Shown piece after piece: positions 13,157 through 46,139 of a stretch of DNA of 49,386 bases. A program made the position numbers and the translations under genes. Each line of letters begins with the position of its first letter. The first letter of the stretch is position 1. This DNA is from an uncultured Gammaproteobacteria bacterium (GTDB lineage Bacteria; Pseudomonadota; Gammaproteobacteria; UBA9214), in assembly GCA_963827755.1 (NCBI GenBank), contig CAWHCQ010000027.1, positions 1 through 49,386 of the forward strand, written 5' to 3'. The notes below the pieces were generated by a model. That model saw only the letters and a list, made by a program, of their open reading frames with translations, had not been told where the DNA came from and ran no database searches.

Positions 13157-13642
13157 TCAGGCCTGCGTATTCTTTTTTATCCAGTCGCGAATCAGCGGAG
13201 TCAGCATGCGGGTGTCCAGGGTGGCAGGCAGGTCGCGGACATAGGGTCCTTGCGCCAGTACCTGTCCGGGGCCGGTACAGAAGCCGCCGTTGCCGCCTGT
13301 CTCGTCCAGAAATGTCAGCCAGTCCCTGCCGGTTAACGGGGCGATTACCCGTCCGGGGAAACGCGTCAGTGCAATGCGTCGCATCAGGCGCGACAGTTGA
13401 GCAAGAAAGTCAGGCGTGCAGGTATCGACGCTCGACTGTTCCAGTTGTTCCAGCAGGCCAAGGAGATGCCTGCGCTGCCGCCGCAGTTTCAAGCGGCGCC
13501 ACACGAGCACGGCAATCCAGCTCAACAGGCCAAGGGCAACAAGGGCCGCGATCCACCAGCCCGGCGCGGGCGGCCAGACATCCACGGGTCCCGGCAGGTG
13601 AATGTCGCGCAGCTGCAGCACATTCGGCATGGACGGGTTCAT
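13157..13642 (-). CDS. DUF4381 family membrane protein
   Basis: LRDIHLP..V..WPPAPGWW, LTG..WL.FLD motifs; canonical position between DUF58 and BatA. Confidence 0.85.
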   Translation of the reverse strand: MNPSMPNVLQLRDIHLPGPVDVWPPAPGWWIAALVALGLLSWIAVLVWRRLKLRRQRRHLLGLLEQLEQSSVDTCTPDFLAQLSRLMRRIALTRFPGRVIAPLTGRDWLTFLDETGGNGGFCTGPGQVLAQGPYVRDLPATLDTRMLTPLIRDWIKKNTQA

Positions 13643-14652: not shown

Positions 14653-14654
14653 GT

Positions 14655-15671: not shown

Positions 15672-15939
15672 GCTGCTCCTGACCTCGTTATAAACACTCG
15701 GTCATGTTATTTCCCTTTCCAGGCCGAGGGTGTTTGTGCCTGTGTGGGACCATGAATATATGTGGTTTGTTCCTGAATTTCCAAGTGGCACTGGCAGCGT
15801 GGCCCATACTGCGGTGTGCCGCCGGCGAGGATGATAGTGAGCCTGTTATTGGACATGATGTGATCGTTGCCGGGTGACTATGTAAGGTATACCAGGCTGC
15901 GATGCGGTGCATTGTACCGTCGGCAGGCCCCGTTGCCTG

Positions 15940-16905: not shown

Positions 16906-17173
16906 GGGGGTACGCCGGGTATAAATGATCACCGATACTAACGCATCGGTTGTTCCCGCAGCAATGAACGTGCGGCTTGCTGCGGGGTCAGGCCGATAAA
17001 AATCGAGGCAACGGATCTGGACATGCTGTCAAGGACCGGCACCTCGCGCAGAACTCTTTTATGGTAAGGTGAGCCGGTCGATCTTTCCATCAGCCCGGTG
17101 TCATGGCCCCTGGTCACTGGCAGTCGGGCTCAACCAGGCAGCCGTCCATGGCCGCTGGACACCACAGGATAAA

Positions 17174-17992
17174 ATGAACGAGAAAACCGAAACCCGCAAC
17201 ATGGCGCTGTTCTGCGATTTCGAGAACGTCGCACTGGGCGTGCGCGATGCCAAGTACGCCGCCTTCAATATACAGAAGGTGCTGGAACGCCTGTTGCTCA
17301 AGGGCAGCATCGTCGTGAAGAAGGCCTACTGTGACTGGGACCGCTACAAGGAATTCAAGGGGGCGATGCACGAGGCGGCCTTTGAACTGATCGAGATCCC
17401 CCACGTACGCATGTCGGGGAAGAACTCCGCCGATATCCGCATGGTCGTCGACGCCCTCGACCTCTGCTATACAAAATCACATGTCGATACGTTCGTGGTC
17501 ATCAGCGGCGACTCGGACTTCTCGCCACTGGTCAGCAAGCTGCGCGAGAACGACAAGGTGGTTATCGGGGTCGGTGTGAAGAGTTCGACCTCCGACCTGC
17601 TGATCGCCAACTGCGACGAGTTCATCTTCTACGACGACCTGGTGCGCGAAACCGGCAAGCCGCGCCGGGCGCGACGCAAGCCCGCCGTGAAGAAGGCCGG
17701 CAGGAAGAGCAAGGCAAAGTCCGATGAGGAAGACAAGCAGCAGGAGGCGCTGGACCTGGTGCTTGAAACGGTCGAGGCCCTGCTGAAGGAACGCGGCGAA
17801 CAGGAAAAGGTCTGGGGGTCGATGGTCAAGCAGACGCTGAAGCGCCGCAAGCCGGGTTTCGACGAGACCTATCACGGCTTCCGCACCTTCGGACAGCTGC
17901 TGGAAGAGGCGCAGGCGCGCAAGCTGCTGGCATTGCAGCTGGACGAAAAATCAGGCGGCTACATCATCAAGGAGCTGGTTAGCGAGGACTAG
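17174..17992 (+). CDS. NYN domain (PIN-like) protein with C-terminal OST-HTH/LOTUS domain
   Basis: ALFCDFEN, GKNSADIRMVVDA, SGDSDFSPL, CDEFIFYD; C-terminal PGFDETYHGFRTFGQLLE LOTUS motif. Confidence 0.88.
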   Translation: MNEKTETRNMALFCDFENVALGVRDAKYAAFNIQKVLERLLLKGSIVVKKAYCDWDRYKEFKGAMHEAAFELIEIPHVRMSGKNSADIRMVVDALDLCYTKSHVDTFVVISGDSDFSPLVSKLRENDKVVIGVGVKSSTSDLLIANCDEFIFYDDLVRETGKPRRARRKPAVKKAGRKSKAKSDEEDKQQEALDLVLETVEALLKERGEQEKVWGSMVKQTLKRRKPGFDETYHGFRTFGQLLEEAQARKLLALQLDEKSGGYIIKELVSED

Positions 17993-27452: not shown

Positions 27453-27548
27453 GGTTTCACATACGCATGGCCTGTATATTGATGTGTGTCAACGACAGGC
27501 TCCGTGCAATCAGTTACAAATAAAGCCGGTTTACAGGTAAGTATTCAC

Positions 27549-28643
27549 ATGACAGAGCGCGATCGATATACCGTTGATACAAAATACTGGCACAAGCTCG
27601 ATGACGGGCGGGTGCAGTGTGACCTGTGTCCGCGTTTCTGCAAGCTGCACGCCGGCCAGCGCGGCCTGTGTTTTGTGCGCGAGAACCTCGACGACCGGAT
27701 TGTTCTGACCACCTACGGGCGTTCCAGCGGATACTGCATCGACCCGATCGAAAAGAAGCCGCTGAACCACTTTTTGCCCGGCACACCGGTGCTGTCTTTC
27801 GGCACGGCGGGCTGCAACCTGGCCTGCAAATTCTGCCAGAACTGGGATATCAGCAAGTCGCGGGAAATCCATACCCTGACCGACGAGGCCTCCCCGGAAC
27901 TGATTGCCACTGCCGCGCAGAAACTCGACTGCAAGAGCGTCGCCTATACCTATAACGACCCGGTGATTTTTCACGAATATGCGATCGATGTGGCAAAAGC
28001 CTGCCATGAGAAAGGCATCAAGTCGGTCGCCGTCACGGCGGGTTATGTCTGCCCGGAGCCGCGCCGGGAGTTCTACCGGTACATGGATGCCGCCAATGTC
28101 GACCTCAAGGCATTTACGGAGGATTTCTATCACAAGATCACCGGTTCACACCTGGCGCCGGTGCTGGAAACCCTGGAATACATCAGGCACGAAACCGATA
28201 CCTGGCTCGAGCTGACCACGCTGCTGATACCCGGCAAGAACGATTCGGCCAGTGAAATCGAGGCCATGAGCCAGTGGGTGGTGGAAAAGCTGGGGCCGGA
28301 TGTGCCCATGCATTTTTCCGCCTTTCATCCCGACTGGAAGATGCTGGATGTGCCGTCGACGCCGAAGGATACCCTGGTACGCGCCCGCGAGATCGCCATG
28401 AAAAACGGAGTGCGTTACGCCTACACCGGCAACGTCCACAACGCGGCGGGCGACAGCACCTACTGTCACCAGTGCGGCGAGACGCTGATCGGCCGTGACT
28501 GGTACGTACTGACGGACTGGAAACTGACCGCCGATGGGAAATGCGCATCCTGCGGGACGGCCTGTGCCGGTGTATTCGAGGCGAGCCCCGGCAACTGGGG
28601 AGCAAAACGCCAGCCGGTCAGGTTGCGTGACTTTGCGGCCTGA
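27549..28643 (+). CDS. amrS: AmmeMemoRadiSam-system radical SAM enzyme (PflA-like)
   Basis: N-terminal CDLCPRFC...G.CFVR, DPIEKKPLNHF.PG, GCNLACKFCQNWDIS (CxxxCxxC), AYTYNDP, C-terminal C..C...C..C. Confidence 0.88.
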   Translation: MTERDRYTVDTKYWHKLDDGRVQCDLCPRFCKLHAGQRGLCFVRENLDDRIVLTTYGRSSGYCIDPIEKKPLNHFLPGTPVLSFGTAGCNLACKFCQNWDISKSREIHTLTDEASPELIATAAQKLDCKSVAYTYNDPVIFHEYAIDVAKACHEKGIKSVAVTAGYVCPEPRREFYRYMDAANVDLKAFTEDFYHKITGSHLAPVLETLEYIRHETDTWLELTTLLIPGKNDSASEIEAMSQWVVEKLGPDVPMHFSAFHPDWKMLDVPSTPKDTLVRAREIAMKNGVRYAYTGNVHNAAGDSTYCHQCGETLIGRDWYVLTDWKLTADGKCASCGTACAGVFEASPGNWGAKRQPVRLRDFAA

Positions 28644-28691
28644 ACGAACGCCTGCCGGCGGCGTGCGGTAAGAAGGCGCCCGGAACGGCGG

Positions 28692-29960
28692 ATGGAAAAC
28701 CCCGGCGACTTCGATATCAGGGATCCTGCGCTGGCGGAGGAGGGCCGCAAGCGCGTCGAGTGGGCGTGGCAGGAGATGCCCGTGTTACGCGAGCTCGAGG
28801 CACGCTTTCGCGAGACGCAACCCCTGCGCGGCATTCATCTCGGCGGCTGCCTGCACATCACCACGGAAACCGCCAACCTGGCCCGTACCCTCAAGGCGGC
28901 CGGTGCGAAGGTCGTGCTCTGCGCCAGCAACCCCCTCAGCACCCAGGATGACGTCGCTGCCGCACTGGTGGAGCACTATGGTGTTCCCGTGTTCGCGGTG
29001 CGCGGCGAATCGACCGAGCGTTACTACCGGCATATCGATGCAGTGCTGGATCACCAGCCTGTAATCACCATGGACGACGGTGCAGATCTTGTCAGCCGCA
29101 TACACCAGTCGCGCCCCGGCCTGATCGGCAACATGCTGGGCGGCACCGAGGAAACCACCACGGGCGTCATCCGGCTGCGCGCCATGGCCGCCGAGGGTGC
29201 ACTGCGCTTCCCGGTGATCGCGGTCAACGACGCCATGACCAAGCATCTTTTCGACAACCGCTACGGTACCGGCCAGAGCGCGCTGGACGGCGTGATCCGC
29301 GCCACCAATATCCTGATCGCCGGCAAGACCTTTACCGTGGTCGGCTATGGCTGGTGTGGCCGCGGCATTGCGATGCGCGCCAAGGGGCACGGCGCCAGTG
29401 TCGTCGTCACCGAGGTCGATCCCCTGCACGCGCTCGAGGCCGCCATGGACGGATTTCGTGTCATGCCGCTGCTGGAGGCGGCGGCACTGTCCGATTTCAT
29501 TGTCACGGCGACCGGCGACAAGCACGTCGTCGACAAGCCCCATCTCGAGGTCATGAAAGACGGCTGCGTGCTCGCGAATTCCGGTCACTTCAATGTCGAG
29601 ATCAATATTCCCGCGCTGGAGGCGATGGCGAGCGCCAAACAGCGGCCGCGCCCGTCCGTCGATGAATACCGGCTTGCCGACGGGCGGCGGATTTGCCTGC
29701 TGGCGGAAGGCCGGCTGGTCAATCTTGCCGCTGCCGAAGGGCACCCCTCCGCCGTCATGGACATGAGTTTCGCCAACCAGGTTCTGTGTGCAGTGCACCT
29801 GGCGACTCAGGCACAGCAGCTGGATAACAGCGTCCATGGTGTTCCGGCAGACATCGACCGGGAGGTGGCGCGTCTTAAACTGGCGGCGATGAATGTCTGC
29901 ATAGATAGCCTGACCGAAGAGCAGCTGCGCTATCTCTCCTCCTGGCAGGAAGGCACCTGA
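28692..29960 (+). CDS. ahcY: Adenosylhomocysteinase (short type)
   Basis: [67 protein letters not shown]. Confidence 0.93.
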
Positions 29961-29961
29961 G

Positions 29962-30633
29962 GTGAACAAGAACCTGCAGGACATGCTCGATGACATCGAC
30001 GCCGAGGTGCGCTATACGCGCAACATGATCGGCAAGGACGCACTCGATGCGCGGGTCATGCAGGCCATGCGCAACGTACCGCGTGAGGAATTTGTACCGC
30101 CGGACATGAAGTTTGACGCCTTTGAAAACGGCCCACTGCCCATCGGCCACGGCCAGACCATCTCCCAGCCCTACATTGTTGCCCTGATGACGGATATGGT
30201 GGCGCCCGAGCCGGAGCACAGCATCCTCGAGATCGGCACCGGTTCCGGCTACCAGACGGCCATACTCTCGCAGTTGTGCAGCAGGGTGTACTCGGTTGAA
30301 GTTGTTGCAGAACTGGGTGCCGCTGCCGCAGCCATCTTCAACAGACTGGGCTACGACAACATCGAAACCCGTATCGGCGACGGCTACCGTGGCTGGCCCG
30401 AACACGCGCCGTATGACGGCATCATCGTGACGGCCGCTGCCACGCATATCCCCGAGGCACTTATCGAGCAGCTCAAGCCGGGTGGCAGGATGGCCATTCC
30501 CGTGGGACAGCCCTACAGTTACCAGGAACTGATGCTGGTCAGAAAAGACGGGCAGGGCAAAACGCACACCCAAAGCGTGCTCGGTGTTGCCTTTGTTCCG
30601 CTGGTGGGCGGGGAGGGTGCCAGCACGATTTAG
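29962..30633 (+). CDS. pcm: Protein-L-isoaspartate(D-aspartate) O-methyltransferase
   Basis: VPREEFVP, LPIGHGQTISQPYIVALM, LEIGTGSGYQTA, GDGY.GWPEHAPYD.I.VTAA, FVPL. Confidence 0.93.
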   Translation: MNKNLQDMLDDIDAEVRYTRNMIGKDALDARVMQAMRNVPREEFVPPDMKFDAFENGPLPIGHGQTISQPYIVALMTDMVAPEPEHSILEIGTGSGYQTAILSQLCSRVYSVEVVAELGAAAAAIFNRLGYDNIETRIGDGYRGWPEHAPYDGIIVTAAATHIPEALIEQLKPGGRMAIPVGQPYSYQELMLVRKDGQGKTHTQSVLGVAFVPLVGGEGASTI

Positions 30634-30788
30634 GATAGAAAGGGTTTATTACATGGAACCGGCTGAACGCGGGAAGACCCGGCGCTTATCGGGTAGTATT
30701 TACGCATTCACCACCCGCAGCATGCCGGGTGAGCACTGATGCAGTATTCTACGGCAAGAGGATCAGGAGCCTTCCTGCAAAACATCTT

Positions 30789-31589
30789 ATGACAAGCCCC
30801 GTTGCAACCGCCAGGCCTTTATTGACCGTCCACCAGGGCAGTGAGCCGGTACTGGTTACGGCCATTCATGCCGGTCACGAAATGCGGCTTGAACTGCAGC
30901 AGATCCTGCAGCTGGATGAAGTCTCACGTTTACGCGAAGAAGACCCCTTTACCGACGCATGGATATGTATTACGGATAACTACATCGTGCCGCAAAGATC
31001 CCGCTTCGAGGTCGATCTAAACCGGCCGCGTGATGAAGCTGTTTATCAGTCAGCCGGAGATGCCTGGGGGCTGGATATCTGGAAGACGCCGCTGACCGAA
31101 GCCATGGTCAAGCACTCGCTTGCCGAATATGACATGTTCTATCAACAGTTGCGCAGCTTGCTGGATGATATGCAGGATCGATATGGCCGCCTTGTTATCT
31201 ATGACCTGCATACCTATAACTATCGTCGCGAGGGCGCCGATGCACCACCGGCCGATGCTGCGGAGAACCCGGACGTGAATGTAGGTACAGGTACCATGGA
31301 CCGGACATACTGGGCGCCGGTAGTGGAAAGCTTTATCGAGCAGCTGGAATCATTCAACTATCCTGGCGGGAATCTCGATGTCAGGGAAAACGTCAAGTTC
31401 AAGGGCCGCGCCTTTGCGCAATGGGTGCACGATAATTATCCGCAGTCAGCCTGTGTCCTGTCGATCGAAATCAAGAAGTTTTTTATGGACGAGTGGAGTG
31501 GCATGGGTGACCCGGTAAAGATACAGGCCCTCCGCCAGGCGCTTGCAAGTACCCTGCCCGGTGTCAAGCAGGCATTGAGCAGCTTGTGA
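30789..31589 (+). CDS. N-formylglutamate amidohydrolase family protein
   Basis: TAIHAGH, REEDPFTD, SRFEVDLNR, DLHTYN, ENVKFKG, SIEIKKFFMDEW (Zn-hydrolase fold). Confidence 0.85.
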   Translation: MTSPVATARPLLTVHQGSEPVLVTAIHAGHEMRLELQQILQLDEVSRLREEDPFTDAWICITDNYIVPQRSRFEVDLNRPRDEAVYQSAGDAWGLDIWKTPLTEAMVKHSLAEYDMFYQQLRSLLDDMQDRYGRLVIYDLHTYNYRREGADAPPADAAENPDVNVGTGTMDRTYWAPVVESFIEQLESFNYPGGNLDVRENVKFKGRAFAQWVHDNYPQSACVLSIEIKKFFMDEWSGMGDPVKIQALRQALASTLPGVKQALSSL

Positions 31590-33493
31590 GCAGAGATGAG
31601 ACAGGCAGCGGCATCCCCCGGGAGTTGCTGGCGAAGATAGAAAAGAAGCTGGCGGACAATCAGCTGGTGCGATACAGGCTCCCTCCGAATGGCCGCCTGC
31701 ATATCGACCGGCAGCTGCCGTTTCTGGTCGTACACCGTTGCACAGACGAAACAGCGGATGCGGGTACCCGGCAATTACTGCTCGGTGAGGCGGCTTTTCT
31801 GCAAACGACAGCCGAACCTGCATTGCAAGCGGAAATCAAACAGCTGATTCACCTGATTGCCCGGGAACAGGGACAGCGCTTCGGGGCCTTTCTCCTGATT
31901 GAACTCTGGTCCCGGGATATCGAGACCGCTGCTGACCTGGAAACACCGCCGACACCGGGATTCTGCATCATGGCGCCGGAACAGGCCGTTCCCGACAAAA
32001 CATTGCAGGCACTCGAACATGCCCTGGAATTGATACATTTGCGCGGCAGGTATGCCAACGTCACGATAGAGTACCAAAAGCAACCGGCCCCTGGCGGACT
32101 TCCACCCCTGTTTGATGACGCACATGCCATGCAGCATCCTGTTGTTGTGTTCGGCCTGCAGGTGGATGCCGTGTTTCGCGAGACACAAAGCGGTGCTATT
32201 TATCCTTTTGCACTGGAGACCATTCACCGGGGGTTGTCCGTTGCGCTGAAAAAAACCTTCTACGCCTTTACCCGCGAAAAAACCCGTTACCGTCCGGAGC
32301 ACTATCATGTGCTGGGTCGTCAGGCGATGACCCGGGTTGTATGGGATGTCGATAAACAACTGGCGGACATCAGTGATAAGTTTGATCTGTTGCTGCATGT
32401 GACACCGGTTAATGCCGGCGCCGCCTGGGAATCGTTTCAGCGCAGTCGCTTTAACACTGCACCGGAGTTTCATTACCGGCCGCGAAGTGCCGACCCGGCC
32501 TTGCTCAAGCGCAGTCTCTACAAGGCGCACCTTGAACGCATCGAGGACCCGGGCCTGGCCGGTTTCTTTTCCAGCAAGCGTGACGAACTGGACCGCCAGA
32601 TAAACCTGTTTGCTGACCGGGGGAAGCCGCGGTTTCTGTATGGAAGCCTGCAGCTGTTCGGAGAGATCGATGATGAGTTAATGCAGACGGCAGAGCATAT
32701 CCTGTCACAGCCTGTTGCAGCACGGCCCGACAACGAGCGCACCCTGCTGACAGCCGGGCCCATGGCAGAGCATGCCCGTGCCGAGCTGGACTATTATCGC
32801 GAGAGGGATCCCGGCCTTGCCGCCGGCGTCGAGGTGCGCGATGACATAAGCGGTGTCCTGGTGTCACAGGGTAATCTGCTTATCGGCACCGATGCCCGTA
32901 TAGAAAAGCGCTGGCTCAAGGGTATGCTCAGCCATGAAATCGGTACCCACGTGGTGACGCACCATAACGGACGACAGCAGCCCTTTCAGCAACTCGCAGC
33001 GGGCATGGCGGGATATGAAGCTCTCCAGGAAGGGCTTGCCGTGCTCTCGGAATACCTGGTCGGAAAGCTCGATATGACCCGCCTGAGATTGATTGCGGGC
33101 CGTGTCATCGGCGTGAGCAGTGTTGTAGCCGGCGCCGATTTTGTCGAGACCTTCAGGTTGCTGGAGAAGGACTACGGATTTACGCCACGCCTTGCGTTCA
33201 CCATGAGCATGCGTGTTCATCGCGGCGGCGGTTACACCAAGGACATGGTCTATCTGCGAGGTTTTAACCAGCTTATTGACTATCTGAAGACCGGTAAGGA
33301 CATCGAATTGCTGTATGCCGGGAAAATTGCGCTCGAGTTTATTCCCCTGCTCGAGGAATTGCGCTGGCGCGAAGTGATCAAGCCGCCTGCCTTGATACCC
33401 CGGTACCTGGAACAGGAGCAGAGCAGGGAGCGGCTGGTGCATTTAAGAAGTCATCCTTCCCTGGATACCATATTAAGGAACACGCCACCATGA
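31586..33493 (+). CDS. QEGLA-motif (DUF1704, MATCAP-like) metallo-carboxypeptidase domain protein
   Basis: HEIGTH (HExxxH) and QEGLAVLSEY, R..RGGG.TKD..YLRG; overlaps both neighbours by 4 bp. Confidence 0.88.
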   Translation: MSRDETGSGIPRELLAKIEKKLADNQLVRYRLPPNGRLHIDRQLPFLVVHRCTDETADAGTRQLLLGEAAFLQTTAEPALQAEIKQLIHLIAREQGQRFGAFLLIELWSRDIETAADLETPPTPGFCIMAPEQAVPDKTLQALEHALELIHLRGRYANVTIEYQKQPAPGGLPPLFDDAHAMQHPVVVFGLQVDAVFRETQSGAIYPFALETIHRGLSVALKKTFYAFTREKTRYRPEHYHVLGRQAMTRVVWDVDKQLADISDKFDLLLHVTPVNAGAAWESFQRSRFNTAPEFHYRPRSADPALLKRSLYKAHLERIEDPGLAGFFSSKRDELDRQINLFADRGKPRFLYGSLQLFGEIDDELMQTAEHILSQPVAARPDNERTLLTAGPMAEHARAELDYYRERDPGLAAGVEVRDDISGVLVSQGNLLIGTDARIEKRWLKGMLSHEIGTHVVTHHNGRQQPFQQLAAGMAGYEALQEGLAVLSEYLVGKLDMTRLRLIAGRVIGVSSVVAGADFVETFRLLEKDYGFTPRLAFTMSMRVHRGGGYTKDMVYLRGFNQLIDYLKTGKDIELLYAGKIALEFIPLLEELRWREVIKPPALIPRYLEQEQSRERLVHLRSHPSLDTILRNTPP

Positions 33494-34537
33494 AGATCGG
33501 GTTCTGTGTGAACAATATACAAACGGAAGTTGTGCGTTATACAACCACCGATCTTGCGCTGGCGGCAACCCGCCTGGGTCATGAGTCCTGGTATATCAGT
33601 GTGGGTGATCTTGCCTATGATCAGGACGAGGCGATCCACGCCCGTGCCTGCCGGGTGGCGAAGCCCAATCACCGGACCGGTGCGGCCTATCTGAAAGATC
33701 TCCAGGGTCAAGGAGGCGATACGCGACTATATCAATGTGAGCGAACTCGATGTCCTGCTGCTGCGCAATGATCCTGCAGAGGATATCCAAACCCGTCCGT
33801 GGGCCCGCATGGCCGGTATCAACTTCGGGCGCTTCGCCGCGAGAAGCGGCGTTCTGGTCCTGAATGATCCGGAGGGGCTTGGCAATGCCCTGAATAAACT
33901 GTATCTGCAGCAGTTTCCCCGGGTCGTACGACCGAGATGCCTGATCACCCGCGATGCGGAGCGGATCAAGGCTTTTGCCAAAGCGGAGGGAGGCAAGGTC
34001 GTCCTGAAACCGTTGTTTGGTTCAGGCGGCCGCAATGTCTTTCTGTTGCGGCCGGAGGATGCGCCGAACATGAACCAGATCATCGAGACCGTCGCACGAG
34101 ACGGTTATATTATCGCGCAGGAATATCTTCCCGAAGCAGTCAGGGGCGATACCCGTTTGTTTCTGTTGAACGGTGAACCCTTGCAGCATAAAGGCAGGAT
34201 AGCGGCGATACGCCGGGTGCGTGCCGACGGTGATATGCGCAGTAACATAACCGCCGGCGCAACATCGGAACCCGCGAGAATCAGCGACAGGATGCTCGCA
34301 ATCGTGGAATCTATCGGTCCCCGGTTGAAACATGACGGCATGTTTTTTGTGGGACTGGATATCGTCGGTGACAAACTGATGGAGATAAATGTGTTCAGTC
34401 CGGGTGGGCTGGATAGCGCAGAGGTGTTCGAGCAGGTGAATTTCTGTCAGATTCTCATTGAGGACATCGAGCGCAAGGTGGCGTTAAAGAAAAGTAGCAA
34501 TAACAGCTTCACCAACCGGGAACTGGCTGTCTTGTAA
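33490..34537 (+). CDS. Glutathione-synthetase-like ATP-grasp ligase; one +1 frameshift near 33709 (probable sequence error)
   Basis: ORF 33490-33771 (MKIGFCVN...) joins ORF 33737-34537 if one base is removed (...LQG|KEAIRDYINVSELDVLLLRNDP). Motifs VLKPLFGSGG, QEYLP, GDTR, RSN, VGLDIVGDKLMEINVFSPGG. Confidence 0.8.
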
Positions 34538-34588
34538 CCGGTATTGGCCGAGATTGGCGAATGCCCGGATTACGCGGCAATCTGCACG

Positions 34589-34720
34589 CTACATGTTGGA
34601 TCGAAACAACTCACTGAAATTATTCGACAGATAGCGTCGCGGCTCGCGCGATGCATCGGACAGCCCCGTGGAGGCTGCAAAATCACACATAATGGACCGG
34701 GTACTGATGGACTGTTGCAT
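34589..34720 (-). CDS. Putative small peptide (43 aa)
   Basis: MQQSISTRSIMCDFAASTGLSDASREPRRYLSNNFSELFRSNM*, preceded by the SD-like CAGGAGAG about 8 nt upstream; no recognised homology. Confidence 0.35.
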   Translation of the reverse strand: MQQSISTRSIMCDFAASTGLSDASREPRRYLSNNFSELFRSNM

Positions 34721-34979
34721 AATAGCTACTCTCCTGTGCATAAACGTGGCATCCAGCAGCCGCCTCCGGTCAAGTATCCGGATGTACCCCTGATGTCGGG
34801 CAAAGGTTGGAATCCCGGCACCTATGACTGATGCCGGCACCGCCAGGGAGCAGGGCTCTTTACGCAACCAACCTGACTTGACGAAGATCAAAGCCGCACC
34901 CCTGTGCCCACGCTAGACTGCCCCTGCATTACCGCATGGCTGGCATTCTGGCTGACTCCACTTTATTGCAGGGACTGTT

Positions 34980-35729
34980 ATGCAAAACAACGAAAAACAT
35001 ACCACCTTTACCATATCCGTGCGCGGCAAGAATGCCCGGCAGCCGATTCTGCGCTTTCTGGCGCTGAATTTCGCCAGCGTCCCGATCAGCCAGGTGGACA
35101 GTGTGTTCGGCTTTGTCGAGCGCTGTTCGTTGTACGGCGGTCGTGTATTTGTGGAACCCCAGCTAACGGATAACGATGTCAGCGTCATGCAGGAGGTCGG
35201 CATCGGGCTGCGCCTGCCGATGAGCAACCACTCTGTCGACCTGGATGAGTACCGTTCCTATAAACCGCTGTTCAGGAAATATCACCGCGCGGGCAATTCG
35301 GTGATTGTCACCAACGATGATCTCGCCCGATGGCTGCGCCAGGATTTTCCCGATTACCAGCTCGAAGCCAGCGTGATCAAGAATCTCAAAACCAAAGACA
35401 AGATCGTCGAAGCCATGGAGTTGTATGACACGGTGGTGCTGCCCATGGAGTGCAATGAGAATCCGGCGTTCCTGCGCGGCCTCGACGACAAGGCACGCAT
35501 CCGTCTGTTCGCGAATGCCGGCTGCGCGCTCACCTGCCCGTCCAAAATCTGTTACCCGTCAGTCTCCAGGGCCAACAAGTTCACCGGCGCAGAACCGCGC
35601 TGTTCTTATGAGATAAAGCCGCGCGAGATGCTGGGCATGCACGATTTCGACCTGGAACAGTTGCAGACTCTGGGCTTTCACCGCTTCAAGATGCTGCGGT
35701 CGCGCCGTCACGGCATGACAGGTTACTAG
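34980..35729 (+). CDS. Hypothetical protein, U32-peptidase-like (possible Fe-S TIM-barrel) family
   Basis: SVIVTNDDLARWLRQDFP..QLEASV, DTVVLP...N, IRLFANAGCALTCPSKICY, later Cys, FKM..R resemble the U32 pattern (D.VVL.RE, ..N.GC...CP, FKI.GR). Recognised by eye only. Confidence 0.55.
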   Translation: MQNNEKHTTFTISVRGKNARQPILRFLALNFASVPISQVDSVFGFVERCSLYGGRVFVEPQLTDNDVSVMQEVGIGLRLPMSNHSVDLDEYRSYKPLFRKYHRAGNSVIVTNDDLARWLRQDFPDYQLEASVIKNLKTKDKIVEAMELYDTVVLPMECNENPAFLRGLDDKARIRLFANAGCALTCPSKICYPSVSRANKFTGAEPRCSYEIKPREMLGMHDFDLEQLQTLGFHRFKMLRSRRHGMTGY

Positions 35730-35958
35730 CGGCCGTCAGTACCAGCCAGCGCACGGATCCGCCGGCCCAGGCCGGATCGAGAGCAGACACACCACTGTCA
35801 CGGCAATCCTTGAGAACCTGGTCCGACATGGTTTTCGTGGTTGCCCCAAATAATGTTAGTATTCCGGGTACAGCACTATTATCCACTGCATTTGGCCTGT
35901 GTACCCGGCTGAAAACAACGAACCCCTGTCAGGACACCCTGCCTCAAGAGACTGATCC

Positions 35959-37859
35959 ATGAGACTGAAACGCGAGTTCTACAAGCTGCCATTGCGCTTT
36001 GATGTGGCGCGCATGGCCGAAGAGGTCCACGGTCTTTGCCGAGGACGAATGGCGTGAGCACCCGCAGAAATACGCCGGCAATTCCGCCATGGTGTTGATT
36101 TCACCGCACGGCGAGATCACTGATGATATGTACGGACCGATGGCGGTCACCGAAAAGTTGCGCCGCTGCCCGTATCTCCAGCAGGTACTGGCTTCGTTCG
36201 ACACAGTGTTCGGCCGCTCACGCCTGATGCGCCTCGCACCCGGCGCCGAGGTCAACATGCACAACGACGTGCATTACAACTGGCGCAACCGGGTGCGCAT
36301 CCATGTCCCTATCATCACCGAGCCCGCGGTGCAGTTTTTCTGCGGCAAGGAGTCGGTACACATGGCGGCGGGCGAGGCATGGATTTTCGACAACTGGAAG
36401 CCGCACCGCGTCATCAACCCGGGCGCCACACACCGCATCCACCTGGTCGCCGACACGGTGGGTACGGCGGCATTCTGGGGCCTGGTGCGGCAACTGCACC
36501 TCATGGGTAACAAGGAAATGGAACCCCGTAATATTTCCTATCAACCGGGACTGACGCCCGAATTGCGCCTGGAGAACTACAACCAGCCCAGCGTGATGCC
36601 CCCGGCCGAACTCAACGGCGCGCTGCGGGAAATGATTGTCGACCTGCGACTCAATCGCCAGGTCGATCCCCACCAGTGCGGCGCGTTTGTGCAGGTACTG
36701 GAAGAGCTGCGTTACGACTGGCAGGCCAACTGGGTTCAGCATGGCCCCAACGAGTCCGGCTGGCCTGTCTATCGCGCCCTGCTGGCGCGCGCCCGCACGC
36801 GCATGGCGGAATTCCCCCGCACGCTGATCCTTGAGCAGCACGAACTACCCGGTGCAGGATGCCGTCGAGGCCATTCTGGTGGCCTGCCTTGGTCCTGCGG
36901 CGAGAGGCAGGGTGTCGTCTGCCCGCCCCGTGAAACGTTCCGCCGAACAGCTCTTCGATCGACCGGTGTTCATCGTCGCCGCACCGCGCTCCGGCAGCAC
37001 CTTGCTGTTCGACTCGCTGGCAGCCAACCGCGCACTGTGGACGCTGGGCGATGAAAGCCACCGCCAGATCGAAGGCATCCCTGAGCTGCATCCCGCCGCT
37101 CACGACTTCGCTTCGAACGCGCTGTCCGCGGCGGACGCCACAGCGGAGGTTGCACGAGCGCTGCGCGAGGCGTTTGCCAAAGACCTGCGCAATGCCGATG
37201 GCACCCGCCTGCTGGAGCTGGGGCAGGAACAACTGCGGCAACTGCGGTTCCTGGAAAAAACACCCAAGAACGCGTTGCGGATTCCGTTCCTGCGCGCCGT
37301 CTTTCCGGACGCGCTGTTTATCTATTTGCACCGCAACCCGCGCGACAACATCAGCAGCATCATGGACGCCTGGCGTTCCGGCCGCTTTGTCACCTACCCG
37401 CAGTTGCCGGATTGGGACGGCCCGCCCTGGTCACTGCTGCTGATACCGGGTTGGCAGGAACTGCGGGGGGCCCCGGTGGCGGAGATCGCAGCACGACAAT
37501 GGCGCGATACGAACCTTGAGATCCTCAGCCAGTTGAGCGCATTGCCGGCGTCACAATGGTGTAGCGTGCGCCATGAGAGCGTGCTGGCGGACCCGGCGCG
37601 CGAATTACGGCGGCTGTGCAGATTTGCGAATCTCCCGTTTGGCGATCGCATGATGACGCTGACGGCAGGTGAGCTCAAGCCCTCACGCTATACCCTCAGC
37701 CGCCCCGACCCGGAAAAATGGCGCAAAAACGCCGACGAGCTGGAGCCGGTATTGCCGTCCGTCGACGACGTCGCTGCACGCCTGACATCACTGTCGGAGG
37801 AGCCGGCAGCAGACCGCGTGACCGGCGGCGCACCCGCCGCGCTTCAATCGACGCTGTAG
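35959..37859 (+). CDS. Asp/Asn beta-hydroxylase (2OG-Fe(II)) domain fused to a sulfotransferase; two +1 frameshifts (~36027, ~36830)
   Basis: Reconstructed MRLKREFYKLPLRFDVARMAEEV|TVFAEDEWREHPQ...; HxD (HND)...RIHVP...FDNWKPH...RIHLVAD facial-triad pattern; then PVFIVAAPRSGSTLL, EKTPKN, RNPRDNISS PAPS-binding motifs. Confidence 0.78.
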
Positions 37860-39704
37860 CCGAGTCGCTCGATCACGGGCGCCAGGATCGGGATGATCGG
37901 CTGAAGTTGCTGTCGATAGTTGCGGTAGCGGTATACGGAACCGCTATAGAGTTTTTCCGTGACCTGCGCGTAACTGGCGGTGCGCGCGTGGCGCACGTTC
38001 TTGTGGAACTCGACGCAGCGCGGATCCCATGGCTCGCCGATAAACTCCAGCATGCGCTGCGCGCCCGCCTCAATGTCGGCAACCAGGTCCTCATACCGGA
38101 TCGCAAGATAGTTCAAATCCAGTTCCCGCGTGTAGTGTTCGACCAGGTCCATCACCGTAACGTAATAATGCGCGGCCTTGACCAGGTCGTAGGCGAAGTT
38201 GTCGCCATGCTGCAGCTCGTTGGAGTAGCACGACAGCATCACGTCCAGCGGATGGCGCAGCAGGTGAATGACCGGCGCCTTCGGAAACACCAGCTTGATC
38301 AGGCCCAGGTGCAGTTCGTTCAGCGGCATCTTGTCGGTAAAGCGCCGCGCACCCGGCTCCACGATGCCCATGGTGCGGATTTCGGCCATGTAAAAGTCAC
38401 GAAACTTCATCAGGTCCTGGCGCTTTTCCGGATTCGCAAGCTCCAGCAGGCAGTCCGGGTAGAGGGTCTGGGTGTTCAGCCAGCGCGGCGCATGCGCCGT
38501 CATGCGATCGATGAGAATCAGTTCATCGCCGGCCGATATCGCGGGATGTGCCGTGAGAATCTGTTCAACCATGCTGGTACCCGAGCGCGGAAAGCCGACG
38601 ATGAAAACCGGCCTTGCCTCCTCGGGCCGCCGCGGCACCGCGCGCGGCAACAGCTGCATGCGTTCGCGAGTGAAGAATTCCCGGTACTTGCCCAGCGCGG
38701 CGCGATTGCCTTCCAGGTCATGGTCACGGTCTCCGGGTTCGCGCGCGCTGCGATTGGCCGCATCGAAAGCGCTGAACGCCTCGCCATAGCGTCGCAGCGC
38801 ATCCAGGGTCTGCCCGAGGGTGAAGTAGTAGAGCACCTTGCCGTGATGATTGAGCAGCGCGGGGTCCATGCGCTGCAACGCCGCCAGCGCCTCGTCATTA
38901 TCCCTGGCGCGGCGATGCAGCTGGGCCGCGTGCAGCGTGTTGTACAGGGTTGCCCGGATAGAGGCGCTCCGCCTCGCGCAACAGCTGCCAGCCATACTCG
39001 AGGTTTTTGACCGCTTCCTCCAGTTTCACCCACCCCAGCAAGGCCTCGTGATTGCCGGGCTGCAGGGACAAGGTGACCCGGTAAAAGCGACGCGCCTCCT
39101 CCATGCGCCCCAGGCTGCGCAGTACCGATGCGAGTTTGACGTTGGCCAGCGGATTTGACGGCTGCAAATATTGCGCCTGGCGCAGATGATATTCCGCGCG
39201 CTGCAGGGTGCTGGTCTTGATGCACGCCAGGCCCATCAGCATATGGGCCTGCGCGTTGCGCGGGTTGCGATCAACAGCACGGGCGGAGTACTGCGCGCTG
39301 TCGTGAATGCGCTGCCGGTCGTACAGAAATCCGGCGTAGTCCGTCAGCAGAACGTCGTTATCCGGCTGCAGGCTCAGCAGCCGCTGGTGGGTGGCTTCCT
39401 CGGCGGCGGGGTCACCGATCGCCTTCTGCGCCCGGCCCAGCAGGCGCAAGGCGTCCACGTGTTCGGGGGCGAGTTTCAGCAGCTTCGACAGGTGCACTTT
39501 CGCGGTCGCAGCCTTTTCCGCGCGCATGGCATCGGTGGCCGCCTGGTAGAGCGCAGCGACTTGCGGATCGTCGGGTTCCACTGCCGGTCGCGATACCGGC
39601 GGGGTGGCCCCGCAACATTGCAGGAACGGCCGTCCGCTGCCGCACAGACACAGGCCCGGCTGCAAGCCGCCGCCCCGCTGTGGAGAAAGAATGGTACCGG
39701 CCAT
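37844..39704 (-). CDS. SEC-C motif + TPR repeats + sulfotransferase; one +1 frameshift near 38948
   Basis: CLCGSGRPFLQCCG (SEC-C Zn motif), several TPR-like helices, PVFIVGFPRSGTSMVEQIL, DKMPLN, RHPLDVMLS, TASYAQV. Frames join as YPGN|LYNTLHAAQLHRR. Confidence 0.8.
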
Positions 39705-39832
39705 CGATGTCGCTTCGCTTAAGGGAAATGAAGGATTGAGCGCCACTTTAGCACGGCGGTCTGCGGCTGCGCACCGTGCCCGTCCTCCGGCACCGCTCCC
39801 GGGAGCAGGGAGCACTCCTTTTCCGGCAACGG

Positions 39833-40641
39833 TTACAACGGTTGCCGTGTTGAGCTGGTGACGCCCGCGTGTGTTACGACCGTTTCCCTGCGCGGCGGCA
39901 TGGGCGGCGCGTTGTTGCATCCGCAGTTCGTAGAACGCCGGGTCGGACGCCTGCAAGGCCGCCTCGCGGGCCGCGCGTGCCTCCTTGCGCGCCTTGCGCT
40001 TCTCCTTGCGGGCGGCCTTCTTCTGTGCCTTTTGTTGCGCTTTCTGTTCTTTCTCTGCACGGCGTTCCGCAACGTGCTGCTCCAGCCTGGCACGCCGCTC
40101 GGGTGACAAACGCTCCAGCCGTGCCTGCCAGCGTTGCTGGCGCGCCGGATCGGGATTGGCCAGCTTGTTGGGATTGCGTGGACCCTTGCCGCGCAGTCCC
40201 GCGAAGTTGACGGCCTCGTTCTCAAGTTTGGCCACGCGGCAGCGCGCGGCTGTTGTCATATTGCCCTTCGGGCAGCACGTAATAGCCGATCAGCATCGGT
40301 GCAGACCCCGGCTTGTCCGGGCGTTCATCATAAATGGCGATGGTGCTCATGCCACGCGTGATGCGCTTGAGGCCCTCTTCCAGCGGCAGCGATTCGATGC
40401 GGGCGCTGACCGTGCGTTCCGCCGCCGGGTCCATGCGCATTTCCACGCCGGTGTTACGGCCGATGACGCCAAGCAGGCCCTTGAGCGAGACCTCCGTCAC
40501 GTCGATACTCAGACGGTCGCTGTCGCTGTCATATTTGAACGGCGCTGGTGTTTGCACCTCCGCCAGCGCGGGCAGTGCCACTATCAGCAGCAGCGCAAAT
40601 AATGCCCTGCCACTGCAGAATTCCCGTAGTCTTTTCGTCAT
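39833..40641 (-). CDS. Exported protein with STN/secretin-N-like domain and basic coiled-coil tail; frameshift near 40235, 3' end uncertain
   Basis: Signal peptide (ALFALLLIVALPALA); LSIDVTEVSLKGLLGVIGRNTGVEM...LPLEEGLKRI resembles secretin N0/STN; continues in another frame as VAKLENEAVN...RQQRWQARLERLSPERRARLE...KAQKKAARKEKRK. Confidence 0.5.
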
Positions 40642-40658
40642 TTTCCAGTCCCCAGAGA

Positions 40659-40689
40659 TGACTATGGCGGGGAAACCCCGCCATAGTCA
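40659..40689. terminator. Perfect 14-bp stem-loop downstream of the Gly-rich lipoprotein gene (terminator or mRNA stabiliser)
   Basis: TGACTATGGCGGGG-AAA-CCCCGCCATAGTCA; no clear poly-U tail. Confidence 0.55.
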
Positions 40690-40728
40690 GTTACTGCAGT
40701 TACGACACTTACGCCATAAGGCGGACTG

Positions 40729-42984
40729 TTAGCAGTCCCCCTGCGTACAGAACCCGCCGACCCGCGCAGATCCGTCGCTACCATCGTTTGCCGGGACATC
40801 GCCGGTACCACCGTTGACCGTGATGGTGCCCGTATTGCTGGTCGAATCCACGACCGGTTAGTTCCACGTCCGCACCATCGCCACCGGTACCCCCTGCTGC
40901 CGTGGCGTTGCCGCCGGTCCCGGTAATGTCGCCGCTGTTGGTGGTATTGATGGCGGACACCAGGATTTCGCATCGGCATCGCCTCCGTTGTCAACGCCGT
41001 CACCGCCACTTGCCGCGATTGCCATGGTGTTGCTGACATCGCCCAGTTCGGAGTACATCTGTATGTAGCCACCGTCGCCACCGACGCTGGCGGCGCCGGT
41101 ACCGGCGCCGCCGTTGCTGGTGAGTGTGGCGGTGTTGGTAATGCCGTTATTGCCAAACATTTCGATGTCGTCACCGCTGCCGCCGATACCCGCCTACACG
41201 TCGAACCACCGCTGGCATCTATGGGACCACTGTTGATCACCTGCGCCAGCAGCTCACCTGTGCTCGGATCGACCGCGAGATCCGCGTAGTAGAAGGTGGT
41301 ATACAGCGCAACACCGCCGCCACCACCACCGCTACCAGCTGGTCGTGGCATTGCCGCCGCGGGTGGTGATCGAGGCCTCATTGACGGTGTTGCCGCTGGG
41401 CACACCGAAACCGTGCTTCATGGTAACCATACTTGTTGTACAAGATCGACGTTACCGCCGCTGCCGCCGCCCGTGTGCGCCATGCGCCGCCGCTGGTATC
41501 CAGGCTGGCGTAGCCGAGCAGCATCGAACGCTGATTGGTCGGGTAGTCGGTCTCCATTGAAATATCGACAGCACCGCCGCTGCCGCCAGCGCCGGTGGCC
41601 GCCAGCGCCGCCGGAGGTGTCCAGATTGCCCGAGACCAGGGTGTCGCCGGCGATGGAATCGCCGGCGTTAAGACTGTCTACGTCGTTAACATACAAGCCA
41701 ATAGCACCGCCACTTCCGCCATCGGTGGAGCCCGCACCACCCGTGGTGGTGATGTCGCCGCTCGAGAACAGGTCAGCGCCATCCGAGTAAAGATAGACGT
41801 CGCCGCCATCGCCGCCGTCACCCGCCGAGGCCATGCCACCTGAAGTGGTGATATCGCCGCTGTTGAGCACACTGCCCGGATCGGCATCCATGTCGACTTC
41901 GCCGCCGTCGCCGCCGGCCGTCGTGCCATCACCGCCCGTGGTGGTCATGTCGCCGGAATTGTACAGGTTGCCCTCTTCGCCATCGCCGGAATACAAATCG
42001 ATAGAACCGCCGTCGCCACCGGCGCCCGCCGTGTTGTCGGCGCCGTCCGTGTTGATCGGGCCGGTGTTCTCGAGCCGGAAATCCGCGTACAAGTCGACAT
42101 CGCCACCGGCGCCGCCGGAGTCTGAGAAGCCCGTGGTCTTGATGCCGCCGTGGTTGATGATATTGCCGTTGGCGTCGATGTCGAGATCGCCGCCGCTATT
42201 AAAGGCGGCATTGCCGCTGAGATCAATCTCGCTGCTGGCGATGTAGGAATCGACATCGATATTCAGATCGATACGGGCACCGCCAAACCCGGCGGCCGTG
42301 GTGACCGTACCCAGGTTATCGAGGTCGTTGGCAAGCGTGACACAGGCGGGATCGCCGGCGGCGATATCCACTGATTCAAGCGTCAGTGTCATGCCGTTAT
42401 TGACCTTGATACCCGTTACCGCAGGTTCGTCCCCTGTAGCCGCATCGCCATCTGAAATATAGACAGTGCCACGAGGGCCAGTGCAGGTTGACGGCGTCGA
42501 TAATCTGGTAGGGTTCGCCGCACCGGAGCAGTATTTGCGCCCGCGGTTTCCCGGGAAATGGTGGTATCGGCTGCGCACTGTTAAGGGTTCGTCGCCGAGG
42601 TAGCCGGTCGCGCTGGTCATGGTGAAGCTGGCGTCGGCCGCATTGGCGTTGAAAATACCCAGCACGCCAAGGGCGCCCTCTTTGTTCTGTTCAAAGTCGC
42701 CGCCGGAACCGCCCGACCCTGCCGTGCTAGCACCACCCTTCATGTTGATGGTATAGGCGCCGGCCGGCCCCGCGATCACGCCCTCGGTGGATTGGGTGAA
42801 GGGGGATCCTGCCCGCGGTGGAGCTGTTAATGATAATAGTGTCGCCGTCATCATCATGGAAGCAGCCACCCAGCGTCAGGCTAGTACTGATCGCAACGAC
42901 CAGGGGCGCAAGTTTGAAATTATGTTGATTCGTATGTTGGATTGATGGAGTGGCGTGACGAGGTGTTTTTCTGCTTCTACTCAT
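40729..42984 (-). CDS. Large Gly/Asp-rich repeat lipoprotein (~750 aa, probable beta-solenoid surface protein); multiple frameshifts
   Basis: N-terminus MSRSRKTP...LAPLVVAISTSLTLGGC (lipobox) preceded by the RBS GGGAGAAG; ~30-aa repeats NSGDITTxGG....GGDGGxVxL spread over ORFs 41418-42869, 40858-41160 and 40778-40960; manual end ...TVNGGTGDVPANDGSDGSARVGGFCTQGDC* at 40729. Confidence 0.7.
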
Positions 42985-43481
42985 ATTGGTACTTCTCCCT
43001 TGCTATTCAGAACAATCCAACCATGCTGATCGTTTGGTTGCTCGATAAAATTACGTAGGTTTCGTGACGGGAGTGTATCAATTCACACTCTTAATTCAAG
43101 GCTAATTTCAGATGCGCAACATCCAGGTAATTTTTACCCCGTCAAGCAATCCGAGACGTCTGATCACATCCGAAAATTTCTGCGCGTTGCCTCAAACTGG
43201 TTAATGCGTGTGTGACTCGGCCGGACGGACATGATCCCCCGAAAAGGACCCGCCAGGGCAGGTATACGGCCGACATTCACGGTATTGTTTGTGTGGCGTC
43301 ATTTATTTGGCGAGGTCCGACCTCTCGATCCTGGCCCCTCCGGTTCGCGGTGAACCCCGGTTCTGTGAGATACTTTGCCGATTTAGTCCGGGTGTAGCGC
43401 CATTGTGGCGGTGTCGATCCGGTTTTTTGTGCCAGGTGCTACCACAGGCAGGTTCGAAACAATCATTTTCAGGACAATATC

Positions 43482-45656: not shown

Positions 45657-45659
45657 TGC

Positions 45660-46139
45660 GTGGATAGAGTCGCGATATTTGCAGATGTCCAGAATATCTA
45701 TTACACGGTCAGGCAAAGTCATGGTTGTCATTTTGATTACAGGAAATTCCGCTTTCGTGCCGGCTCTGAACGGCAAGTCGTGAAGGCAATTGCCTATGCG
45801 ATCGATCGTGGCGATGAGCAACAACGAAAATTCCAGAAGACTCTGGAAAACATCGGTTTTGAAATAAAGCTCAAGCCATTTATTCAGCGAAGCGACGGTT
45901 CTGCCAAGGGTGACTGGGATGTGGGCATTGCACTCGATGTGATCGAGTATGCAGCACTCGTCGATGTGATCGTGCTGGCATCGGGAGATGGTGACTTCGA
46001 TCTGCTGGTTGATAAAGCGATCAACAACTACGGCGTCCAGGTTGAAGTCTATGGTGTGCCTGCGCTCACGGCACAGTCCCTGGTTAACGCGGCCAGCCGC
46101 TTTATACCCGTAGAGGGTGACCTGTTACTGGCGAAATGA
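45660..46139 (+). CDS. NYN/LabA/DUF88 domain protein (stand-alone PIN-like)
   Basis: IFADVQNIYY, KGDWDVGIALD, LASGDGDFDLL, VYGV..LTA.SL. Confidence 0.88.
   Translation: MDRVAIFADVQNIYYTVRQSHGCHFDYRKFRFRAGSERQVVKAIAYAIDRGDEQQRKFQKTLENIGFEIKLKPFIQRSDGSAKGDWDVGIALDVIEYAALVDVIVLASGDGDFDLLVDKAINNYGVQVEVYGVPALTAQSLVNAASRFIPVEGDLLLAK

Follow-up and report, generated by a model that had tools for sequence, protein, structure and literature searches.

Two predicted sulfotransferases beside a repeat lipoprotein gene in an uncultured gammaproteobacterium

Tailoring of surface proteins in the cytoplasm before export is known for beta-helical adhesins, which are modified by the autotransporter heptosyltransferases (AAH/TibC) and by HMW1C, and in the Rax system an export-bound protein client is likewise modified in the cytoplasm. 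RaxST of Xanthomonas is a characterised bacterial tyrosine sulfotransferase that sulfates RaxX and Omp1X; in the open-access papers found, bacterial protein sulfation was named for this enzyme only. A second precedent is computational: operons predicted by Iyer et al. 2010 (PMC2938197) join beta-hydroxylases, phytanoyl-CoA hydroxylases and sulfotransferases to genes for secreted Gly-rich or tail-collar proteins, which were proposed to be hydroxylated and then sulfated. Here we describe a region (positions 34980–42984) of a 49,386-nucleotide stretch of DNA, referred to below as the window, from an uncultured Gammaproteobacteria bacterium (assembly GCA_963827755.1, contig CAWHCQ010000027.1). In this region the genes for two predicted sulfotransferases, one of them fused to a hydroxylase, lie next to a gene for a repeat lipoprotein.

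A preliminary description, made from the sequence, had presented the region as one hydroxylation and sulfation system of five genes. All five gene products are present where it had placed them, but only the gene for a U32-like protein is uninterrupted; the others can be read only through frameshifts, and two of the gene models were wrong. We read the region as three juxtaposed modules and not as one five-gene system. The first would be a conserved two-gene unit for a Sec-exported beta-solenoid lipoprotein and a periplasmic STN-like partner of ~250 amino acids (aa). Directly downstream of it lies the second, which would comprise two convergent, cytoplasmic tailoring enzymes dependent on 3'-phosphoadenosine 5'-phosphosulfate (PAPS). 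The third, upstream, would be an unrelated, highly conserved U32-fold protein of the Fe-S type. We tentatively propose that the two enzymes are accessory tailors of secreted proteins and that the lipoprotein is a client, a reading to which we give a little less than an even chance. In this genome the lipoprotein is the leading, if unproven, candidate. In the mechanism we envisage, the TPR array of one enzyme would bind a secretory protein in the cytoplasm before it has folded, while its catalytic domain O-sulfates tyrosines, and the fusion enzyme would hydroxylate a side chain and then sulfate the new hydroxyl on the same substrate. Both enzymes would be movable accessories, attached to different secreted proteins in different genomes.

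Two predicted tailoring enzymes

The first enzyme gene, on the forward strand, extends from an ATG at 35959 to position 37859. It would encode a protein of ~633 aa in which a 2-oxoglutarate (2OG)/Fe(II) hydroxylase domain is fused to a Sulfotransfer_3 domain. Here and elsewhere, frameshifts were placed by comparing homolog profiles with each of the three frames. For this gene the profile, built from 14 fused homologs and 635 positions long, is matched at 1–29, 25–299 and 321–631, and because these matches fall in three different frames we place two frameshifts, near 36032–36045 and 36844–36909. Both domains score well above their Pfam cut-offs (Asp_Arg_Hydrox, PF05118, E 7e-16, 58.9 bits versus 22.6; Sulfotransfer_3, E 2.7e-28, 100.1 bits versus 27).

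Among solved structures, the hydroxylase domain comes closest to the free L-proline cis-4-hydroxylase 4p7w (E 1.8e-5), with a weak match to 1e5r; human AspH is not among its PDB matches at E<=1. Its H-N-D motif and a subsequent H line up with the iron ligands of 4p7w (H-R-D and H), and the predicted Fe site is of the ordinary H-x-D...H type. The preliminary description had taken Asp or Asn as the substrate. That specificity is not established, because the nearest solved relatives act on free proline and only the name of the Pfam family suggests Asp/Asn. The same Pfam family also takes in lipid hydroxylases such as LpxO, to which the match (NCBIfam) is negligible here (E 0.089).

In the sulfotransferase part we found the 5'-phosphosulfate loop (PRSGS) and the 3'-phosphate R..S motif. 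Its best PDB match is the CurM sulfotransferase (ST) domain (4gbm, E 2.5e-10). Relatives are numerous, with 5730 cluster-representative matches at E<=1e-3 and 433 at E<=1e-30, and in 43 of the best 60 the match begins past residue 200 of proteins of 490–1090 aa. Among 24 homologs picked from 150 listed, with long ones favoured, 16 carry both Asp_Arg_Hydrox and Sulfotransfer_3, and fused homologs of 560–700 aa are common. The fused arrangement is widespread, and this speaks for one substrate that is first hydroxylated and then sulfated. A DUF4915 domain is additionally fused in 8 of the 24 (P0258, P0259, P0271, P0273, P0289, P0293, P0295 and P0301). Of the extra partners of the hydroxylase-sulfotransferases, DUF4915/TIGR03032 is the most frequent; it does not occur in the window, and in Diaphorobacter it has a gene of its own downstream (L009:13890–14987). 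The open-access literature yielded no papers on DUF4915 or TIGR03032 and, within the text available, no study of the fusion family.

The second enzyme gene lies on the reverse strand, starting at an ATG at 39704 and ending at 37844. As the preliminary description had noted, its 3' end overlaps that of the fusion gene, by 16 bp (37844–37859). The gene would encode SEC-C, TPR repeats and a tyrosine-sulfotransferase-like Sulfotransfer_3 domain in ~620 aa, close to the 616–633 aa of its nearest homologs. The 619-position profile of P0391–P0393 is covered at 16–252 and 252–619, with one frameshift near 38950, and this profile moves the start from 40259, where it had originally been put, to 39704. 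The gene is tightly placed behind the lipoprotein and partner genes on the same strand.

The Sulfotransfer_3 domain of this enzyme (E 1.6e-38, 133.6 bits versus a cut-off of 27) has protein-tyrosine sulfotransferases (TPSTs) as its best PDB matches: 8w5z (E 2e-9), TPST1 (4e-7) and TPST2. The positions aligned to TPST comprise the PRSGT loop, G-D-E with G-E-E, D-K-M-P with N-K-D-P, and R..S, of which we take the Glu and Lys positions to be catalytic. Judged from these alignments, the TPR enzyme more plausibly sulfates tyrosine than hydroxy-Asp or hydroxy-Asn. The order of hydroxylation and then sulfation put forward in the preliminary description is consistent with the architecture of the fused homologs, but is less plausible for the TPR enzyme with hydroxy-Asp/Asn as acceptor. 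Both sulfotransferases look catalytically competent and cytoplasmic.

The SEC-C motif near the N-terminus of the TPR protein (C-x-C-G-S-G ... C-C-G; CLCGSGRPFLQCCG, residues 19–32) had also been reported before. The pattern is kept at the N-termini of the close homologs P0391–P0393, but the profile match (PF02810, 17.0 bits, E 0.0053) falls below the gathering score of 20.4. The combination of SEC-C, TPR and Sulfotransfer_3 recurs in P0391 and P0393 (617–633 aa) and six more proteins, and PF02810 is annotated in 8 sulfotransferase-bearing homologs. SEC-C and TPR are also fused to a Glyco_transf_41 (O-GlcNAc-transferase-like) domain in P0447 and P0448. This suggests that SEC-C plus TPR is a reusable targeting module for protein-modifying enzymes.

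The contexts of these enzymes elsewhere were read from plasmid records, which form an annotated collection. Homologs of the TPR-sulfotransferase occur in 71 of these records; we inspected 19, mostly one per genus, of which 18 were annotated. In 8 of the 18 contexts (L011, L012, L013, L017, L021, L028, L030 and L032) a secreted protein or its exporter is encoded at most about three genes away. Autotransporters are found nearby in Azospirillum, Thalassospira, Enterobacter 638, Kluyvera and Pacificitalea. In Comamonas the neighbours are a 4321-aa cadherin-domain protein, a type I secretion system (T1SS; TolC/ABC/HlyD) and cysC, in Sulfitobacter a T1SS and a Ca-binding protein, and in Paroceanicella flagellin. 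As far as the available text of the open-access literature goes, no paper on an association between TPR-sulfotransferases and autotransporters was found, and nothing on it appears among the titles listed for RiPPs (ribosomally synthesised peptides altered after translation) and O-sulfation.

Full-length fusions were found on two plasmids, of Diaphorobacter and Asticcacaulis. The Diaphorobacter gene abuts a gene for an 877-aa IPTL-CTERM protein with repeats of the parallel-beta-helix type and is itself followed by the TIGR03032/DUF4915 gene. The Asticcacaulis gene follows a TonB-dependent receptor, another sulfotransferase and a separate hydroxylase, and it lies directly downstream of a TPR-sulfotransferase homolog; the enzyme pair therefore recurs outside the window. 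We favour a protein target because of the TPST-like domain, the 8 of 18 relatives located by secreted proteins or flagellin, and the one fusion beside a beta-helix protein.

A plasmid of Eleftheria terrae (L023, 6340–9836) carries a separate 2OG-Fe(II) oxygenase gene directly before a gene for a sulfotransferase of 708 aa, which shares 39% identity with the fused sulfotransferase domain of the window. Close by are an 881-aa PEP-CTERM protein and another Asp_Arg_Hydrox gene. The arrangement resembles the hydroxylase/sulfotransferase pairing in unfused form.

The lipoprotein unit and its relatives

The lipoprotein gene (40729–42984, reverse strand) would encode a repeat protein of ~750 aa that is rich in Gly, Asp, Asn and Thr and predicted to form an all-beta solenoid. 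The reading frame changes at least seven times (at ~42850, 41610, 41416, 41340, 41183, 40966 and 40853), and three more frameshifts are probable by eye at 42470–42560, for a total of ~10. An in-frame segment of 397 aa matches 128 longer proteins, mostly of 700–850 aa and unnamed, with a best identity of 44%. In an alignment of 31 members of this family a signal peptide is followed by a Cys that hardly varies, and the repeats of Gly, Asp, Asn and Ser are degenerate; by eye the N-terminus ends in the lipobox L-G-G-C. The predicted model of one member, P0121, has a predicted local distance difference test score (pLDDT) of 90.2 and is all-beta, with strands in short triplets. Foldseek returned no PDB match for it at E<=0.001; the top non-significant ones are beta-helices (RTX, antigen 43, tailspikes). 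At the DNA level the gene has short, weak tandem arrays only.

The lipoprotein is paired with an exported STN-like protein of ~250 aa (~39874–40641, reverse strand), recognised from homologs in related loci. The preliminary description had listed a separate 139-aa STN-like protein, which turns out to be the N-terminal half of this gene (open reading frame [ORF] 40641–40222), the other half (40271–39906) having been wrongly joined to the TPR gene. This follows because the first half of homologs of 251–284 aa matches the 139-aa ORF and their second half matches approximately residues 41–118 of the ORF earlier assigned to the TPR gene. The frameshift that splits the partner gene lies near 40237–40271. 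Its stop is not in frame, and the nearest stop, in another frame, is at ~39876. The protein has a signal peptide, a weak STN-like domain and a C-terminal half rich in Lys, Arg and Glu. The STN match (PF07660) is below the cut-off of 28.4, both in the window (14.3 bits, E 0.038) and in the homolog from L005 (24.9 bits, E 1.8e-5). Pfam and NCBIfam gave no usable match for the 139-aa and lipoprotein ORFs, and the ESM Atlas none for the lipoprotein; for the partner it returned only sub-threshold STN leads (0.80).

One genome scan with the lipoprotein alignment returned eight loci, mostly from Gammaproteobacteria and Chromatiales metagenome-assembled genomes (MAGs). A partner gene of 251–284 aa lies directly downstream of the lipoprotein gene in seven of them, and the eighth contig stops at the lipoprotein gene. 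Other neighbours vary. Two loci from Gammaproteobacteria/Chromatiales MAGs (L001:4137–13165 and L002:13083–21959) encode, after the pair, a GT4 glycosyltransferase, an Fn3/ConA-like protein of ~2100 aa and a GT2 enzyme; there the linked tailoring genes are glycosyltransferases and not sulfotransferases. A 4197-bp contig binned as 'Candidatus Thorarchaeota' (L004) carries the lipoprotein and partner pair of bacterial type and is probably a mis-binned bacterial contig.

A second instance of co-location is possible. The closest TPR-sulfotransferase relative found (P0394, 57% identity) and a member of the lipoprotein family (P0128) are each found on one ENA contig only, in both cases exactly 12,450 bp long, the only size common to the two lists of relatives. 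It is possible, on this circumstantial ground, that the two proteins share one contig. None of the 10 top fusion homologs comes from a 12,450-bp contig, which is uninformative.

Alternative substrates, frameshifts and the U32-fold protein

Several observations weigh against the enzymes as tailors of secreted proteins with the lipoprotein as a client. From the lipoprotein side, no sulfotransferase, hydroxylase or TPR-sulfotransferase was found in any of the eight loci (tblastn, and Pfam on 77 ORFs), four of which (L001, L002, L005 and L007) include the full 10 kb downstream of the lipoprotein gene, where the window has the enzymes. Co-location of the enzymes with a candidate substrate gene was not seen from this side; from the enzyme side other secreted repeat proteins adjoin 8 of the 18 TPR-enzyme contexts and one of the two fusions. 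The 8 of 18 is a raw count, not set against a background rate, and the Enterobacter and Kluyvera cases have the same arrangement and are not independent; another 3 of the 18 contexts lie beside TonB-dependent receptors (Asticcacaulis, Pseudoalteromonas and Komagataeibacter) and 7 have no secreted protein. Placing P0128 and P0394 on the same contig has equal size and source as its sole basis. No PAPS-synthesis gene was found in the window, and the cytoplasmic location of both enzymes comes from a by-eye view of their N-termini. An acidic tyrosine context, considered as a TPST signature in the lipoprotein, was rejected: it was observed for 8 of 12 tyrosines versus ~0.6 expected from composition, which is chance level.

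Among the solved structures, the relatives of the hydroxylase domain use free proline, and CurM ST, nearest to the fused sulfotransferase, acts on a small molecule bound to an acyl carrier. These relatives, the eight lipoprotein loci and the three receptor-flanked contexts all favour an alternative in which the enzymes act on some other substrate, be it a free amino acid or small peptide, a lipid, a glycan or a secreted protein encoded elsewhere, and their adjacency to the lipoprotein is incidental. The Komagataeibacter relative points the same way, with a glycosyltransferase, a NodS-like methyltransferase and a PIG-L deacetylase as neighbours. However, the TPR array and the TPST-like domain point to a protein client, and so do the relatives that flank secreted proteins. 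Pfam scans found no glycosyltransferase, nonribosomal peptide synthetase (NRPS) or polyketide synthase (PKS) domain in the window, as the preliminary description had remarked, and the window holds no receptor gene. The position of the TPR gene behind the lipoprotein pair and the possible second co-location also count against this alternative, which we regard as a substantial possibility, of roughly one chance in three.

The frameshifts raise a different question. We count at least 12, concentrated at 33.7–42.9 kb, and given this number the genes are possibly dead, which also weighs against an active tailoring system. If the frameshifts are real mutations, the cluster would be a decaying, non-functional remnant. 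In its favour, the long ORFs that were scanned in other parts of the window, two AcrB genes of more than 3 kb among them, showed no break, in what was a check of Pfam coverage and not a frameshift search. Against decay, the profile-aligned segments have no in-frame stop in 2102 codons (two segments placed by eye left out), the GC content at third codon positions (GC3) of cluster segments is 0.69–0.80, the same as in the remaining window, and the catalytic motifs are intact. Moreover, an unrelated glutathione-synthetase-like ATP-grasp gene (PRK12458) is also frameshifted near 33.7 kb, with profile positions 1–74 in ORF 33298–33768 and 74–349 in 33695–34534. An indel-only pattern over ~9 kb in one assembly stretch fits local read, assembly or polishing error somewhat better than decay, and we consider a dead remnant unlikely. 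In the tailoring reading that we prefer, the frameshifts would be local indels from sequencing or assembly, or else decay of very recent date. A foreign island was also considered from GC and GC3 and rejected, since the cluster genes resemble the remaining window.

The U32-like protein is encoded by the one intact gene (34980–35729, forward strand). It is a 249-aa TIM-barrel protein with no Pfam (E<=10) or NCBIfam match; the Peptidase_U32 profile is not matched. Its AlphaFold model (pLDDT 90.5) has the U32 peptidase Mk0906 (5d88) as best PDB fold match by Foldseek (E 2.3e-8, probability 1.00, TM 0.62), followed by generic TIM barrels, the best at 8.5e-4. Four cysteines (C182, C186, C191 and C208) are invariant in 35 sequences and are compatible with an Fe-S site. 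UbiU/UbiV, TrhP and RlhA are members of the U32 family. We found 1769 homologs, of which the 34 aligned are 54–89% identical; some are labelled 'collagenase-like PrtC family protease' by the Joint Genome Institute (JGI), and among the named homologs are Gammaproteobacteria and Acidobacteria MAGs. This strong conservation suggests a housekeeping role. The gene is absent from all 32 comparison loci (26 by tblastn, the last 6 by annotation only), and against the plasmids it gave one weak match only. The U32 assignment of the preliminary description agrees with the fold and the cysteines, but its link of the gene to the cluster finds no support, nor does the division of labour between oxic (2OG) and anoxic (U32) hydroxylation. 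The U32-like gene is probably not part of the tailoring system.

The full scheme of the preliminary description, in which the lipoprotein would be beta-hydroxylated on Asp/Asn by the 2OG enzyme with O2 or by the U32-like protein without it, and then O-sulfated by both sulfotransferases before SecB-guided export, is very improbable: the U32 fold with its cysteines, the SEC-C motif conserved in close homologs and the lipoprotein segment rich in Asp (11%) and Asn (6%) are all real, but the U32-like gene is missing from all 32 comparison loci and its family is as conserved as a housekeeping role would predict, the predicted Fe site is ordinary, the TPR enzyme is TPST-like, SEC-C is absent from 12 of 12 plasmid TPR-sulfotransferases, and SecB binding is pure conjecture.

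The remainder of the window, which has ~60% GC overall and is proteobacterial in appearance, includes RND efflux pumps, a MoxR/VWA/BatD operon and a radical-SAM/AdoHcy-hydrolase/PCMT group. The PRK12458 gene closes a forward-strand group at 30639–34534 that also encodes an FGase-like amidohydrolase and a 660-aa QEGLA/MATCAP-type protein. Before it, at 27483–30630 (forward strand), a gene for a radical SAM enzyme of the AmmeMemoRadiSam type (TIGR04337, 4e-200) lies directly upstream of those for AdoHcy hydrolase and protein-L-isoaspartate O-methyltransferase (PCMT); the ORFs scanned include neither an AMMECR1 nor a Memo partner. Genes for transglutaminase-like, proteasome-type, Alpha-E and circularly permuted ATP-grasp proteins occur together at 4047–8453, a recurrent cluster of the peptide-modification type, and a BatD, VWA-TPR, VWA, DUF4381, DUF58 and MoxR AAA operon occupies 8360–15701 on the reverse strand. 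Two NYN-domain genes are found on the forward strand, at 17000–17989 and at 45657–46136. The second follows ABC-F and DUF1415 genes and has a markedly lower GC3 (0.54). Scans of the window with Rfam (gathering threshold) and for tRNA gave no matches. A promoter and terminator scan of 34400–43400 was not used, as it returned 4 promoter-like sites versus 2.7 expected and terminator-like sites that were not sensibly placed.

Comparison with described systems

The most interesting lead is the recurrent placement of TPR-sulfotransferases beside secreted proteins. If these enzymes do tailor surface or secreted proteins, sulfate would rank with sugars among the common decorations of bacterial adhesins, with effects on adhesion, on charge, on recognition by phages and the immune system, and on marine sulfur use. 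The fusion, with its 433 cluster representatives, is a large enzyme family in its own right. A still broader idea, which we consider improbable, is that SEC-C/TPR sulfotransferases represent a widespread, unrecognised pathway for cytoplasmic tyrosine sulfation of export-bound proteins (type V, type I, flagellin and Sec lipoprotein), in which SEC-C/TPR would capture unfolded clients at the export machinery and the fusion would add O-sulfated hydroxy-amino acids, a kind of residue that proteins are not known to contain, to the same beta-solenoid repeats. The window offers a compact pairing of both enzymes with one candidate client; the poor sequence and the non-conservation on the client side reduce its value.

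Comparison of the individual proteins with solved relatives gives partial likenesses. The U32-like protein shares with the U32 family (Mk0906, 5d88) the TIM-barrel fold and a cluster of invariant cysteines, but is a minimal, 249-aa form outside the Peptidase_U32 profile. The hydroxylase domain aligns with L-proline cis-4-hydroxylase (4p7w) at H-x-D and the distal H; that enzyme, however, takes a free amino acid and stands alone, without a sulfotransferase. CurM ST (4gbm) sulfates a beta-hydroxyl made in the preceding step, as the fusion enzyme may do. In contrast to the fusion, it belongs to a PKS and its substrate is an acyl-acyl carrier protein; the match covers part of the domain, and no PKS is present here.

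The heptosyltransferases AAH/TibC and HMW1C resemble the locus in arrangement: the enzyme gene adjoins a gene for a beta-helical surface protein, and modification of the repeats must precede Sec export. They differ in chemistry, with glycosylation in place of sulfation and hydroxylation, bear no sequence relationship to the enzymes described here, and serve type V clients whereas the candidate client of the window is a lipoprotein. With the RaxST-RaxX-RaxA/B system of Xanthomonas oryzae, compared by description, and with TPST1/2 (5wrj, 3ap1, 8w5z) the TPR enzyme shares a PAPS-dependent domain of the Sulfotransfer_3 type, and the PRSGT loop, G-E-E, K and R..S positions of TPST align with it. 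The tyrosine acceptor is established for those enzymes and predicted for this one. The window enzyme has in addition an N-terminal SEC-C motif and TPR array, and neither a small RaxX-like precursor nor a T1SS is nearby; its Comamonas relative has both a T1SS and cysC beside it, as in an arrangement of the Rax type.

The closest likeness is to the neighbourhoods of Iyer et al. 2010 (PMC2938197). The preliminary description had called the system undescribed, whereas the concept of hydroxylation followed by sulfation was already predicted there, and the window is a variant of this computationally predicted kind, on sequence of doubtful quality. The PhyH-methyltransferase, PAPS synthetase, acetyltransferase and AlkB-like genes of those neighbourhoods have no counterpart here, and their candidate substrates are collagen-like or tail-collar proteins in place of a beta-solenoid lipoprotein. 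In the window, by comparison, the hydroxylase and sulfotransferase are one polypeptide and are joined by a second, SEC-C/TPR/TPST-like enzyme. Common to both sets of predictions is a PF05118-type hydroxylase with a P-loop sulfotransferase beside a gene for a secreted Gly-rich protein.

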